From assembly GCA_964505145.1 (NCBI GenBank), contig CAZDHJ010000013.1, positions 50,662-89,774 of the forward strand: DNA of 39,113 nt, read 5' to 3'. The position numbers were made by a program, and so were the translations under genes. This DNA is from an uncultured Nannocystaceae bacterium. GTDB lineage: Bacteria; Myxococcota_A; Polyangia; Nannocystales; Nannocystaceae. Shown piece after piece: positions 28,528-35,438 of the stretch. Below the pieces are notes generated by a model, which was not told where the DNA came from, ran no database searches, and saw only the letters and a list, made by a program, of their open reading frames with translations. Every line of letters begins with the position of its first letter. The stretch's first letter is position 1.

Positions 28528-31059
28528 TCAGCGCTTGCCGGCGGGCTCGCCGTTGCTCGGCGCGGCCCCACCGGCCGCCGGGATCGCCCGCTGCGCGAGC
28601 TTCTTGGTCAGCGACTCGAGCGGCGTACCCGCGAAGACGCGGTCGAGCACGTCGGTCAGGGTCTTGCCGCCGACGAAGTTCTGCACGCTCATCGCGTCCG
28701 CGATCTTCACCAGCGCCTCGTGGCTCGACAGCGCCAGCAGGGCCTCGGAGAAGCCCGGCTGCGCCGCGGAGAAGCGCGAGACCGCGGCCTCGACCTCGGC
28801 GCGCAGGGCCTCGAGTCGCAGCGCCTGGGTCTGCTGCTCGACCCGCAGCTGCTGGTCCGCGGTGGCCTGGCGCCGCGCGAGCTCGGCGGCGTGGCCGATG
28901 TCGGACGCGGCGTTGCGCGCGATCACGGCCTGCTTGCGATCCTCGTGCTCCTTGATGTCCGCGGCGACCTGCGCGAGCACGACGTCGAGCCGCGCGCGCA
29001 CGTCGGCCGATTCGAGTGCCGCGAGCTTGGCCGTGGTGGTCGAGCGGGCCTCGGCGTCCTGCTGGCGGATGGTCTCCTGCTCGCGCACGACCTCGAGGTT
29101 GCGACGCGCGCGCGACAGCGTGATGTGGCTCTGCATGGTCTCGAGCTCGGCGGCGCCCAGCAGCTCGGCGATGCGCGGGTCACCGATCTCCACGCCCAGC
29201 ACCTCGACATCGGTGACGTGCATGCCGTTCTCGGAGAAGCGCATGCCCGGCCGCTCGCCGTCCTTGGCCTTGCCCAAGATGGTGTCGCGGATGATGTCGA
29301 CCGCATCGGCGTAGAACGGCTCGATCGCGGACTTCTTGATGGTGCCCTTGAGCACCGAGCGCACGTGGTCGCACAGGAACTTGACGTAGTTCTCGACCTC
29401 GAACCACTTGGTCGGCTCGCCGGTGAAGTTCACGCGCATGGAGTACTTGAGCTCCACGCCCACGTGATCGCTGGTCTCGACCTCGCAGATGTCCGAGACC
29501 TTGTTGTTGAGCACGCGCAGGTAGACCGTGCGCAGCAGGGTCTCGGTGCTCTTGGGCTTGCCGGTCGACAGCTCGAGGATCTCGAGCGACTCGTCGTACT
29601 CGAGCAGGACCGTCTGCGGGCCCAGCTCGACCCGGCGGTTGCCCTTCTTGTCGACCACCATCATGGCGTAGCCGACCCACAGGTTGAGCGTGGGCACGCC
29701 CTCGTACTTGGTGTTGAAGACGATCGTGCGCGGCTGGTTGAAGTTGCTGCCGCGCTCGAGCACGTCGCCGACCATTGCGGCGGTGTCGCGCGACACGCTC
29801 GACTGATCCATCGCGACCGCCTGCGCCGGCGACGGTGCGGCGCCGCGCGGGCGCTTCTGGCTGCGCTCGTAGTCCCCCTCGGAGACGACGCCTGCACGGG
29901 TCGTGGGCGCGCTGGCCATGACCTGACGCAGGCCGCGGTTGTACTGCAGCGCCTCGTCGTTGCCGGGATACCAGACCATGCACTCCTTGTCGGAGAGCAC
30001 GCGGCGCACGATGACCTCGTCGACCGGGTTGGGCAGCAGCATCGCGGGACCGCGGGCCATGCGGATCTCGCCGGTCTTGCGGTTCATGACGTAGCGGGCC
30101 TCGCCCGCCGGCACTGCGACCGCGAAGTGCTTGTCCTTGCCGTCGTAGCGGACCAGCGAGTGCTCCTCGCGCGGGAAGTAGATCGCGGTCTGCTTGCCGG
30201 TGATGAAGATCTCGTCGCCTTCCTTGAAGGCGTGACCGCCCTCGGTGTACGGCGCGATGACCTTGATGTGCAGACCCTGGATCTCGTTGAGCTCGAGCGC
30301 GCGGAACTTGCGATGGCCGTCGCGCAGGATGAACGACTCGGTCGGCTCGGGGAACACCACCTGCGGGCCCCGCTCGTAGCGCTTCTTGCCGTTCTGCTCG
30401 ACCAGGATGCAGTACTCGAGCCGCTCGAGCGTGAGCGCGTCGCGGACGTAGTTGGCCTGCTCGTCGGGCACGACGCCGACGCCGGTCGGCGGGATGTAGA
30501 ACGACACGTCGGTGCCCTTGATGATGTACAGCTTGCCGACGGTGAGATCCGGCGGCGCGGCGAGCGTTGGCTCCGAAACACCCTCGACCGCGGGTTTGAT
30601 CACAGCGGTGCCCCAGCTGCGACGGGCCTCGTCCTCGTTGTAGACCCGCACCAGCAGGTACTGGTTGGAGCGCAGGTGGTGGCCCTTCACCAGCTTGACG
30701 ATCTGCCCCGGCCACAGCGCGAAGTTGCACGGGCCGGTGATGTTGATCTTCTTTCCGACATCGAGATCGGGGCTGGGGTGCACACCGCCGGACGACGGGT
30801 GATCGCCGCGGACCGAAGGATTCTTGAGGATGAGGTAGTAGCCCTCCGGCGCGATCGCACCGACCTGCACCGCCTCCTCGAGCGAGCACGGCTCGAAGCG
30901 CTTGCTGGTGGGGTTGAACAACACCGGCCGCTCCTGCGCGGTCGGGTTGATCACGGTCGGACCGGTATACGTCTTGATGACGCCCTTGGTCACGTCCTGC
31001 ATGTACGCGTACTCGCTGGGTGCGAGCACGAGGTCGCGCTTGTTGCCACGCTCGTCCAT
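28528..31059 (-). CDS. Major vault protein (MVP) homologue, full length, 843 aa.
   Basis: N-terminus DLVLAPSEYAYMQDVTKGVIKTYTGPTVINPTAQERPVLFNP matches the first MVP repeat ([41 protein letters not shown]). Later repeats are also present (GEIRMARGPAMLLPNPVDEVI). The shoulder region reads VELGPQTVLLEYDESLEILELSTGKPK...ETSDHVGVELKYSMRVNF. The cap-helix coiled coil and cap-ring tail read EALVKIADAMSVQNFVGGKTLTDVLDRVFAGTPL. Confidence 0.85.
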   Translation of the reverse strand: MDERGNKRDLVLAPSEYAYMQDVTKGVIKTYTGPTVINPTAQERPVLFNPTSKRFEPCSLEEAVQVGAIAPEGYYLILKNPSVRGDHPSSGGVHPSPDLDVGKKINITGPCNFALWPGQIVKLVKGHHLRSNQYLLVRVYNEDEARRSWGTAVIKPAVEGVSEPTLAAPPDLTVGKLYIIKGTDVSFYIPPTGVGVVPDEQANYVRDALTLERLEYCILVEQNGKKRYERGPQVVFPEPTESFILRDGHRKFRALELNEIQGLHIKVIAPYTEGGHAFKEGDEIFITGKQTAIYFPREEHSLVRYDGKDKHFAVAVPAGEARYVMNRKTGEIRMARGPAMLLPNPVDEVIVRRVLSDKECMVWYPGNDEALQYNRGLRQVMASAPTTRAGVVSEGDYERSQKRPRGAAPSPAQAVAMDQSSVSRDTAAMVGDVLERGSNFNQPRTIVFNTKYEGVPTLNLWVGYAMMVVDKKGNRRVELGPQTVLLEYDESLEILELSTGKPKSTETLLRTVYLRVLNNKVSDICEVETSDHVGVELKYSMRVNFTGEPTKWFEVENYVKFLCDHVRSVLKGTIKKSAIEPFYADAVDIIRDTILGKAKDGERPGMRFSENGMHVTDVEVLGVEIGDPRIAELLGAAELETMQSHITLSRARRNLEVVREQETIRQQDAEARSTTTAKLAALESADVRARLDVVLAQVAADIKEHEDRKQAVIARNAASDIGHAAELARRQATADQQLRVEQQTQALRLEALRAEVEAAVSRFSAAQPGFSEALLALSSHEALVKIADAMSVQNFVGGKTLTDVLDRVFAGTPLESLTKKLAQRAIPAAGGAAPSNGEPAGKR

Positions 31060-31107
31060 TGTCGGGCTGCCTCGTCGAAGGGGGCAGCAGCGTAGCAGGG
31101 TTTCGCG

Positions 31108-31707
31108 TCAGCCGGCGGTCGCGGCCGAAGCCGGCGGCGCGGGCACGAGCGCCGGCGACAGCAGAAACGCTCGCAGACCCGTGCTCTCGCCGTCCTGCCC
31201 CCGTCGTTGCGCCAGCTCGAGGTCCTCGGGCACGCGCAGGCCGATGCCGTCGAGGCCGCGCTCGTCGCTGGTGAAACAGGTGATGTGCGGCGGCGGTGGG
31301 CGGAAGAACGCCGCGGCGCCGCCGGGTGTCTTGGTCTCGTCGGCCAGCGCGGGCACCAGCGGTGCGAGGGTGCGCGCGCAGGCCTCGAAGAACGGCGCGA
31401 TGCCGGGTGCGTCGACCAGCATCACCACCGTCAGCAGATCGCGCGGTTTGTCGCGGTGCAGCAGGTACCACCGCGAGCTCGACGTCCAGCGCAGATCGGC
31501 GGCTGCAACCAGGGCATCGACCTCGCTGCGGATCTCGGACAGCACCGGCGCGAGCACGCGGCCCACGTCGAAGCCGAACAGGGTGATGTGGTGCTCGCGC
31601 TTGCGCACCAGCGTGCGCGCACCGAGCACGAGGGTCTCGGGCAGCGTCAGGGCCTCGTGGGGCACCGGCACCAGCAGCGTGCCGCGATCGGACAGGCTCG
31701 GTTGCAT
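31108..31707 (-). CDS. 2H phosphoesterase superfamily protein (LigT / cyclic phosphodiesterase-like), 199 aa.
   Basis: ATG at 31707 (MQPSLSDRG...). Two H-x-T-x motifs about 100 aa apart (HHITLFGF and PHITCFTS), the hallmark of the 2H fold. 23 nt downstream of the kinase gene and 48 nt upstream of MVP, same strand. Confidence 0.6.
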   Translation of the reverse strand: MQPSLSDRGTLLVPVPHEALTLPETLVLGARTLVRKREHHITLFGFDVGRVLAPVLSEIRSEVDALVAAADLRWTSSSRWYLLHRDKPRDLLTVVMLVDAPGIAPFFEACARTLAPLVPALADETKTPGGAAAFFRPPPPHITCFTSDERGLDGIGLRVPEDLELAQRRGQDGESTGLRAFLLSPALVPAPPASAATAG

Positions 31708-34730: not shown

Positions 34731-34793
34731 GATAGCGCGGCGCCCCCCCGGGTTGTGGCATCATGGCAGTCCGCGCTGGCGCGCGCCGCGACC

Positions 34794-35438
34794 ATGGCCG
34801 ACGAGACCGACTTCGAGCTGCTGGCGCACTGGCGCGGCGGCGACGCAGCCGCCGGCAATCGCCTGCTGCGCCGGCACTTCCAGACCGTCCACCGCTTCTT
34901 CCGCAACAAGGTCGACGGCGACATCGACGACCTCATCCAGCGCACGTTCCTGGGCCTGGTCGAGGCGCTGCCGCGGTTCCAGGAGCGGGCGCAGTTCAAG
35001 ACCTTCCTGCTCGCGGTCGCACGCAACCACCTGCTGCTGCACTTCCGCGAGCGCGCGCGACTCAAGCAGCGCGATGCCGAGGACGTCTCGGTCCACGACC
35101 TCGGCGTGGTCGACGCGCCCAGCGGCGTCATCGCGCTGCGCGAGGAGCAACAGCTGCTGCTGGTCGCGCTGCGCCGCTTGCCGCTGGCGCTGCAGATCAC
35201 CGTCGAGCTGTTCTACTGGGAGCGCATGGGCATCGACGACATCGGCATCGTGCTCGAGATCCCGCCCGGCACCGTGAAGAGCCGCCTGGCCCGCGCGCGC
35301 GACAACCTCAAGCAGACGCTCGAGCAGCTGGCGAGTTCACCCGCAGCGCGCGCCAGCTCGATCCAGGACCTCGAGGCCTGGGCGCGATCGTTGCGCGACG
35401 TGCTCGCGGCGCTCGACGGCGTCGAGGGCCCGGCCTGA
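34794..35438 (+). CDS. RNA polymerase ECF-type sigma factor (sigma-70 family) with a C-terminal extension, 214 aa.
   Basis: ATG at 34794 (MADETDFELLAHWRGGD...). Sigma-2 region (DLIQRTFLGLVEALPRF) and sigma-4 HTH (IDDIGIVLEIPPGTVKSRLARARDNL). About 40 aa extra at the C-terminus. Divergent from the kinase gene with a 63-nt gap. No anti-sigma gene follows. Confidence 0.85.
   Translation: MADETDFELLAHWRGGDAAAGNRLLRRHFQTVHRFFRNKVDGDIDDLIQRTFLGLVEALPRFQERAQFKTFLLAVARNHLLLHFRERARLKQRDAEDVSVHDLGVVDAPSGVIALREEQQLLLVALRRLPLALQITVELFYWERMGIDDIGIVLEIPPGTVKSRLARARDNLKQTLEQLASSPAARASSIQDLEAWARSLRDVLAALDGVEGPA

Follow-up and report, generated by a model that had tools for sequence, protein, structure and literature searches.

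A major vault protein homologue paired with a predicted 2H phosphoesterase beside a separable ECF sigma factor-kinase module in a Nannocystaceae bacterium

Introduction

Eukaryotic vaults carry the ADP-ribosyltransferase PARP4, the NADase TEP1 and small RNAs, and the shoulder found in the major vault protein (MVP) binds ADP-ribose; the function of the vault has been unresolved since its discovery (bioRxiv 10.64898/2026.05.01.722283). MVP homologues of Myxococcales, including Enhygromyxa (Nannocystaceae), are already on record in two reports, and the parts of these that were examined contain no gene-neighbourhood analysis (bioRxiv 10.1101/872010; 10.1101/2023.11.10.566534). Here, we describe the surroundings of an MVP gene in a 39,113-nt stretch of DNA (hereafter, the window) from an uncultured Nannocystaceae bacterium (assembly GCA_964505145.1, contig CAZDHJ010000013.1, positions 50,662 to 89,774), in which it adjoins the gene of a predicted 2H phosphoesterase and lies close to the genes of a Ser/Thr kinase and a sigma factor. 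To our knowledge, bacterial MVP homologues are essentially unstudied.

Two H-x-S/T motifs define the 2H superfamily, whose enzymes have RNA and nucleotide cyclic phosphates as substrates (PMC5283653, PMC4201822). Among the extracytoplasmic function (ECF) sigma factors, the ECF43 group is defined by the loss of the acidic DAED/DxxD motif in region 2.2 together with a conserved Thr in that region (PMC8999054, PMC13147305), and is represented by the pairs of a sigma factor and a Hanks-type kinase EcfP-PknT of Vibrio parahaemolyticus and EcfK-PknS of Xanthomonas citri.

Results

Gene organization around the MVP gene

The G+C content of the window is 72%, and spurious long open reading frames (ORFs) are therefore abundant. 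A plot of third-codon-position G+C (GC3) by frame and a codon log-odds gene caller picked the same four frames, which encode the MVP homologue, a 199-amino-acid (aa) product, the kinase and the sigma factor. The kinase gene, the 199-aa ORF and the MVP gene are arranged head-to-tail on the minus strand, and the sigma factor gene diverges from the kinase gene. The main features are as follows.

28,528-31,059, minus strand: MVP homologue, 843 aa (Pfam MVP_shoulder, 1.9e-25; Vault_3, 4.9e-11)
31,089-31,097, minus strand: conserved TGCTACGCT element, extended −10-like (conservation upstream of MVP in relatives)
31,108-31,707, minus strand: predicted unclassified 2H phosphoesterase, 199 aa (two H-x-T motifs, predicted fold)
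31,731-34,730, minus strand: transmembrane Hanks-type Ser/Thr kinase, 999 aa (Pfam Pkinase, 1e-38)
34,794-35,438, plus strand: ECF (group 4) sigma factor, 214 aa (Sigma70_r2, r4_2 and ECF models; TIGR02937)

The coordinates, orientations and gaps given for these four genes in the first-pass annotation were confirmed. The gaps are 23 nt between the kinase and 2H genes, 48 nt between the 2H and MVP genes, and 63 nt between the kinase and sigma factor genes, and an alternative GTG start of the 2H gene at position 31,734 would give a GTGA stop/start overlap with the kinase stop codon. No terminator-like site was found in the intergenic gaps of the unit; one weak match lies inside the kinase gene and another site lies about 230 nt after MVP.

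The 199-aa ORF encodes a predicted 2H phosphoesterase of a new family

The 199-aa product matched none of the Pfam and NCBIfam models, including those of the curated 2H families LigT_PEase, 2_5_RNA_ligase2 and 2H-SAK. It contains two H-x-T motifs, H40-I-T42 and H141-I-T143, of which H40, H141 and T143 never vary, while T42 occurs in at least 90% of sequences, in a set of 36 aligned relatives and 8 locus-derived homologues. In the alignment of the 36 relatives, the motifs lie in the contexts K-x-E-H-H-x-T and P-P-P-P-H-V-T-L-Y-T-S-D, and G-I-G-L is a further distinctive motif of the family. The AlphaFold2 (AF2) model of the protein was confident (predicted local distance difference test, pLDDT, 90.4) and has a 2H fold, with structural neighbours including Acb1, the poxvirus cGAMP phosphodiesterase and ns2; these matches point to no particular substrate. 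When the model was used to search the viral structures of BFVD, 2H-like matches were obtained, all of them non-significant. The Pfam 2H models gave seven weak matches among 150 relatives, and distant members of the family are fused to HD, ART-PolyVal and deaminase domains. A word-based search yielded five relatives, and, at a threshold of E≤1e-3, an exhaustive profile search retrieved 234 cluster representatives out of 1.84 billion, indicating that the family is rare.

The first-pass call of a 2H phosphoesterase was thus borne out by the H-x-T motifs, the confident model and the weak distant matches, and the motifs and predicted fold place the product in the 2H superfamily as a predicted enzyme. 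No curated 2H model matched, and it represents a new family within the superfamily. It resembles LigT/ThpR, CPDase and Usb1 in its two H-x-T motifs and 2H fold (PMC5283653, PMC4201822), whereas it differs from them in lacking a Pfam or NCBIfam 2H match, in its distinctive motifs and in its tie to MVP.

The MVP-2H gene pair recurs in several Myxococcota lineages and in a phage-like contig

Eighty species-level loci with MVP homologues (44-100% identity, nearly all from Myxococcota) were assembled for a survey, in which genes were called and neighbours clustered; the codon log-odds gene caller misses lower-GC genes, such as the insert in L002 described below. Loci are cited by L numbers, L001 being the locus of the window. 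The 2H gene was found in 8 of the 80 loci, always on the same strand as MVP and at position +1 or −1: it is upstream of MVP in L001 and L003, and downstream, with gaps of −4 to 117 nt, in L004, L005, L007, L009, L051 and L076. A six-frame hidden Markov model (HMM) search of the 80 loci revealed no additional 2H copies. The probability that all eight copies would be adjacent by chance is about 5e-7 if they are independent and about 1e-4 when they are counted as five lineages.

When the pairing was approached from the 2H side, MVP was found immediately upstream of the 2H gene in the metagenome contigs L094, L095, L096/L089 and L097, and in the 199-kb IMG/VR contig L100 (UViG_3300035210_000132), whose MVP and 2H proteins are 52% and 31% identical to those of the window, respectively. 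In L100:1-12492, the MVP gene (3304-5955) and the 2H gene (5998-6516) lie inside a co-directional array of 12 tRNA genes; a tRNA-Leu gene ends 20 nt before the MVP ORF, another begins 73 nt after the 2H gene, and an HNH endonuclease gene is located at 8084-8626. This region looks like a jumbo-phage tRNA cluster. The context of the 2H relatives P0127-P0130, which lie on contigs of about 1 kb, was mostly uninformative.

The pairwise identities of MVP and of 2H co-varied (Spearman 0.81, for pairs that are non-independent), which fits co-inheritance with one rearrangement. A search across clades for conserved non-coding elements around the MVP-2H loci gave matches between close relatives only. The first-pass annotation had found the adjacency of the 2H and MVP genes intriguing; it recurs in 8 of 80 loci, four metagenome contigs and one phage-like contig, and, since it is evolutionarily conserved, it is very probably functional. 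In the searched literature there was no paper joining the vault or MVP with a 2H phosphoesterase, and the MVP-2H pair appears to be undescribed there.

The MVP homologue retains the shoulder and a cap-helix-like region

The MVP_shoulder match (PF11978) spans residues 518-627 and covers the whole profile, and the Vault_3 match represents one recognized vault repeat (residues 472-514), compared with the nine of rat MVP. Residues 465-797 are colinear with residues 465-829 of human/rat MVP (E 1e-22), and a weak colinear match (i-Evalue 0.51) was seen between residues 213-347 and MVP residues 274-409. The window corresponds to part of contig JAXLYC010000019.1 of the Nannocystaceae metagenome-assembled genome STL-MYX3. 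The protein is 100% identical to that of a Nannocystaceae metagenome-assembled genome and is conserved at 65-100% identity across many Myxococcota genomes. In the AF2 model, the shoulder and a cap-helix-like helix were predicted at pLDDT 70-86, the helix running continuously over about 135 residues (628-763) and aligning to the cap-helix region of MVP; the N-terminal 460 aa had pLDDT <50, and vault repeats were not resolved there.

The bacterial protein is homologous to the eukaryotic one: the shoulder, one recognized repeat and the cap-helix region are colinear with rat/human MVP, whereas the N-terminal repeats are too diverged to confirm. As a further likeness, the bacterial MVP has a genetic link to a predicted enzyme that acts on nucleotides or RNA, paralleling PARP4, TEP1 and the ADP-ribose bound by the shoulder; the difference is that the bacterial partner is a 2H phosphoesterase, or NADAR in one lineage. 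Pfam and Rfam scans found no homologues of PARP4, TEP1/TROVE or vault RNA near the window MVP.

MVP homologues 44-65% identical to the window protein were also present in the low-GC contigs L025, L073 and L079, labelled as Candidatus Achromatium palustre (39% GC), Spirochaetes (40%) and unclassified bacterium (43%), which suggests horizontal transfer or mis-binning outside Myxococcota.

The MVP gene has a conserved promoter-like element of its own

The TGCTACGCT element is located within the 48-nt gap, 11 nt downstream of the 2H stop codon and 38 nt upstream of the MVP ATG. It is identical, at −37 to −41 from the MVP start, in L001, L002, L003, L008, L078 and L081, although the sequences upstream of it are otherwise unrelated, consisting of 2H coding sequence, a divergent intergenic region that is AT-rich, or a gene of the SnoaL family. 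Related TAnnnT-type motifs were found upstream of MVP in 18 of 77 loci, against 0.3 expected. The position of the element is consistent with an extended −10 promoter whose leader, of about 23 nt, contains GAGG. Because TGCTACGCT is conserved despite unrelated upstream sequence and its position fits an extended −10, it is probably the promoter of MVP itself; co-transcription of the kinase and 2H genes, with read-through into MVP, is possible. A sigma-70 consensus scan of positions 28,000-36,000 gave no promoter matches, and no ECF-type promoter was found upstream of MVP. The first-pass proposal of a single kinase-2H-MVP operon is not supported: the tight spacing and the gaps without a terminator are in its favour, whereas the three genes are contiguous only in L001 and L003, and a promoter-like element lies in the 2H-MVP gap.

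Between the sigma factor and kinase genes, a motif common to the window, L003 and L081 was aligned, consisting of GATGCCACAA (minus strand, positions 34,753-34,762) and then GCTATCAT. Read along the kinase strand, the form conserved in L003 and L081 is ATGCCACAA ... GCTATCAT. Because the GCTATCAT half overlaps the annotated kinase ATG, the true kinase start may lie further downstream than annotated. No second copy of this motif was found in the window or in 100 loci, including the regions upstream of MVP.

A different motif, TGG-N9-TG[C/A], was seen 27-34 nt before the ATG of Kofleriaceae/Haliangiales MVP genes in about 17 of the 80 loci (e.g. L026, L033, L041, L044 and L066), and anywhere in the 105-nt MVP upstream region in 20 loci, against 3.3 expected. 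Its assignment as a sigma-54 −24/−12 promoter from this sequence is doubtful, because its end, upstream of the Shine-Dalgarno sequence, is only about 14 nt from the ATG. The MVP flanks often contain sigma-54 activators, one cluster of which occurs in 10 loci.

The ECF sigma factor and the kinase form a module that occurs without MVP

Further features of this part of the window are listed below.

About 33,645-33,701, minus strand: transmembrane segment, within the kinase gene
About 33,750-34,586, minus strand: kinase domain, within the kinase gene
34,731-34,793, no strand assigned: divergent sigma/kinase intergenic region, 63 nt (motif common to window, L003 and L081)
35,446-35,673, minus strand: 75-aa ORF with coding-like codon usage and no family match
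35,697-35,867, plus strand: Usp gene remnant, C-terminal third (Usp profile positions 89-140 of 141, E 4.4e-07)

The kinase motifs are intact (G-loop, VAIK75, HRD177, DFG197 and APE243). One hydrophobic segment (aa 344-362), preceded by RRRRR, separates the kinase domain from a C-terminal domain of 634 aa, which is predicted to be periplasmic, is Ala/Leu-rich, gave TPR_16/19 matches below the cut-off and is conserved only in L003 and L081.

The sigma factor has Sigma70_r2 at residues 26-89 and r4_2 at residues 120-171, has neither r3 nor r1, and thus belongs to the ECF (group 4) type; its C-terminal tail of about 35 aa is conserved. No anti-sigma ORF was found downstream of its gene. As the first-pass annotation had described, gene remnants stand there instead, namely the 75-aa ORF and the Usp fragment, whose upstream frame is interrupted by stops. 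Because the TetR gene directly abuts the sigma factor gene in both L003 and L081, the intervening stretch in the window (35,446-35,867) is lineage-specific debris.

The first-pass annotation had also recognized an ECF sigma factor paired with a Hanks kinase and lacking an anti-sigma factor, and this pairing recurs: all sigma factor homologues checked, those of L081 (82% identical) and of L101-L103 (63, 58 and 53% identical), adjoin a Hanks kinase gene and have no anti-sigma gene. No MVP was found within 8 kb of the ECF-kinase pairs of L101-L103. The sigma factor family is very large in Myxococcota, with 796 matches at E≤1e-10 and hundreds at about 50% identity. Because homologous pairs occur without MVP nearby, the sigma-kinase pair is an independent conserved module, one of the ordinary signalling pairs of myxobacteria.

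On the other hand, the ECF43-type label that the first-pass annotation had attached to this arrangement was not sustained. The pair resembles EcfP-PknT and EcfK-PknS in that a transmembrane Hanks kinase is the neighbour and no anti-sigma factor is encoded. In contrast to ECF43, region 2.2 of the window sigma factor reads D-I-D-D-L-I-Q-R, aligned to D-V-P-D-V-V-Q-E of E. coli RpoE, and is kept in the orthologues, and the Thr of the ECF43 QTTA motif is absent from the alignment; membership of ECF43 is ruled out by this intact acidic DxxD. The sigma factor rather resembles other ECF groups associated with kinases, in which a DAED-like motif is retained and the mechanism is unknown (PMC8999054, PMC7826278).

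Other neighbours of MVP

The complete arrangement, with the sigma factor gene divergent from kinase-2H-MVP, was found only in the window (L001) and in its 98%-identical relative L003. In L081-L084, whose 2H and MVP proteins are 63% and 89% identical to those of the window, the order of the sigma factor, kinase and 2H genes is kept, as is that of the flanking TetR and SDR genes. Around MVP in relatives, the 2H gene thus recurs, whereas the full kinase/2H/ECF set is confined to L001 and L003 and interrupted in L081. Otherwise, the neighbourhood of MVP is highly variable, including genes for GST, radical SAM, alpha/beta hydrolase, MFS, acyltransferase and MshEN proteins and sigma-54 activators.

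In one Nannocystaceae species, a gene for NADAR, an ADP-ribosyl hydrolase (PMC11125620, PMC11543638), follows MVP at 82 nt (PF08719, 8.7e-52).

L106:12584-13159: NADAR gene (PF08719)
L107:3236-3814: NADAR gene (PF08719)

NADAR directly follows MVP in the same genome whose contig LNFM01000334 carries a 2H gene at a distance from MVP (see Discussion). In L002:12470-16088, NADAR is reduced to its last 42 codons, following a 3.3-kb lower-GC insert that encodes HD-CE and HATPase_c.

Several other associations were observed. A conserved block of MVP, a Ser/Thr kinase of about 378 aa, a small Cys-containing protein and a GST-like protein is present in L026, L027, L034, L036, L040, L041, L044, L046, L066 and L071; it spans species with MVPs 60-68% identical to that of the window, and the association differs from that of the window kinase. 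A gene for a 312-aa Cys-rich lipoprotein-like product (L106:8882-9820) is divergent from MVP in L002, L008, L078 and L106 and co-directional in L065; it is unrelated to the D8C_UMOD/DUF4215 Cys-rich secreted repeat protein encoded downstream of MVP in the window (26,534-28,309, minus strand). In L077:8957-10372, a gene for an RNB-domain (RNase II/R type) exoribonuclease begins 44 nt after MVP; in L050 the next gene, encoded on the opposite strand, is its homologue. In L010, the sigma-54 activator that follows MVP has a weak RtcR-like match, which hinted at an RNA-repair operon; this candidate was dropped, the next genes encoding a zinc-ribbon protein and a two-component system. Elsewhere in the window, a 652-aa ORF without a Pfam match (8,509-10,467, plus strand) shows a very strong coding signal (GC3 0.95). 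A PADLOC scan gave generic kinase-domain matches only.

Discussion

We favour the interpretation, with a probability of roughly 0.55, that the region consists of two juxtaposed and separable modules, ECF-kinase and MVP-2H, the latter with a vault-accessory mechanism. The first module, the divergent ECF sigma factor and transmembrane Hanks kinase, is conserved in Myxococcota with or without MVP. Because the pairing is conserved and no anti-sigma factor is present, post-translational control of the sigma factor by the kinase is most likely, and it would not be exerted through the phospho-switch in region 2.2 of ECF43. In the second module, MVP and 2H are inherited together across several Myxococcota lineages, and also occur in one phage-like contig, in most lineages with MVP first and 2H second; in the lineage of the window, 2H lies upstream of MVP, where it has joined the 3' end of the kinase gene, and MVP is probably transcribed for the most part from a −10-type promoter of its own within the 48-nt gap. 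The MVP would assemble into a vault-like shell, with which the 2H protein may physically associate as a catalytic accessory that hydrolyses a cyclic-phosphate or 2'-5'-linked end. Candidate substrates are an RNA 2',3'-cyclic phosphate end, possibly of a tRNA-like RNA, or a particle-associated cyclic phosphate derived from ADP-ribose.

Several observations weigh against this two-module interpretation. The enzyme is not a universal partner, since a nearby 2H gene is absent from 72 of the 80 MVP loci, and the link is loose within the 2H subclade to which the window protein belongs. In L081, 2H and MVP are set apart by three genes, of which two are on the opposite strand; the 2H gene is about 15 kb from MVP in contig LNFM01000334, assuming that its two database records, equal in length, are the same sequence; and 2H follows an RND pump gene in L086, kinase and asparaginase genes in L087, and a prepilin peptidase gene in L090. 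L085:1-7799 holds a 44%-identical 2H without MVP; this contig, with many short co-directional ORFs, a NUDIX gene and a faint Dam-like match, looks like a phage. In addition, the 2H protein showed no evident targeting peptide or docking domain, no known RNA gene was detected when the window was scanned with Rfam and for tRNAs, the full-length AF2 model of MVP (15-sequence alignment) had a pLDDT of 47, and the identity correlation carries the non-independence noted above.

The first-pass annotation had proposed that the sensor kinase acts on the ECF sigma factor, which in turn drives MVP expression. In its full form, the kinase, 2H and MVP genes would be one operon driven by the divergent sigma factor, the kinase would phosphorylate the sigma factor in the ECF43 manner, and an envelope signal would switch on MVP. 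The tight spacing and terminator-free gaps are consistent with such a circuit, as are the several distinct kinase-MVP arrangements that recur, the same-family sigma factors near MVP in L002, L008, L078/L106 and L064, and the FHA protein and ABC1 kinase genes that adjoin MVP in other loci. Ser/Thr kinases account for 19 of 254 genes within 1.5 kb of MVP and 20 of 721 further out, an enrichment of about 2.7-fold; however, myxobacterial genomes are rich in such kinases, so that it is suggestive only, and about seven independent kinase orthologous groups near MVP, compared with about four expected, is not a significant excess. Similarly, the sigma factors near other MVPs, 46-48% identical, may be paralogues from a very large family. 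The circuit is unsupported because the ECF-kinase pair is separable and occurs without MVP, MVP carries a conserved promoter-like element of its own, and opposite-strand genes break the unit in L081; moreover, no shared promoter motif was found, and the acidic DxxD kept in region 2.2 makes the ECF43 switch inapplicable (PMC8999054). We therefore consider this circuit improbable.

A second possibility is that MVP-2H is a conflict module of phage defence or counter-defence, in which 2H would break down a nucleotide second messenger or repair cleaved RNA and MVP would serve as a scaffold or sequestering shell. The viral 2H phosphodiesterases Acb1 and ns2 are precedents and, with the poxvirus cGAMP phosphodiesterase, are structural neighbours of the 2H model; a 2H relative lies beside the NUDIX gene in phage-like L085, the MVP-2H pair of the IMG/VR contig is accompanied by the HNH endonuclease and tRNA array, and the domain fusions of distant 2H members (HD, ART-PolyVal, deaminase) and the NADAR gene directly after MVP in L106/L107, disrupted in L002 by the HD-CE and HATPase_c insert, are in keeping with it. 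Two phage MVPs have also been reported (bioRxiv 10.1101/2023.11.10.566534). On the other hand, MVP and 2H match no PADLOC model, the BFVD matches are all non-significant, ordinary chromosomal genes flank them in the window, and MVP is too well conserved across Myxococcota to resemble a fast-evolving defence gene. Such a role thus appears unlikely. That everything is fortuitous, with 2H beside MVP by chance in genomes crowded with kinases and ECF sigma factors, is very unlikely. The variability of the MVP neighbourhood and the confinement of the four-gene arrangement to one lineage fit chance; in contrast, a rare 2H family adjoins MVP in at least 8 lineages and in two gene orders, and the two proteins co-diverge. 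Chance is largely refuted for 2H, whereas for the kinase and the sigma factor it is close to the best explanation.

Beyond the two-module interpretation, bacterial and at least one phage-like MVP might form a vault-like compartment with an ancestral role in RNA-end or ADP-ribose-nucleotide chemistry, served by lineage-specific enzymes, a dedicated 2H in many lineages and NADAR in another, as functional counterparts of TEP1, PARP4 and vault RNA, and the tRNA array around the pair in the phage-like contig would point to tRNA or a tRNA-like RNA as cargo or substrate; we offer this tentatively and regard it as rather doubtful.

The noteworthy part of the region is the MVP-2H pair, and the kinase and sigma factor should not be taken as a vault regulator without transcript data. 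The pairing parallels recent evidence that NAD/ADP-ribose chemistry is concentrated in eukaryotic vaults, and a genetically linked 2H enzyme, with its predicted chemistry of cyclic-phosphate or 2'-5' hydrolysis, would provide a concrete handle on vault function.

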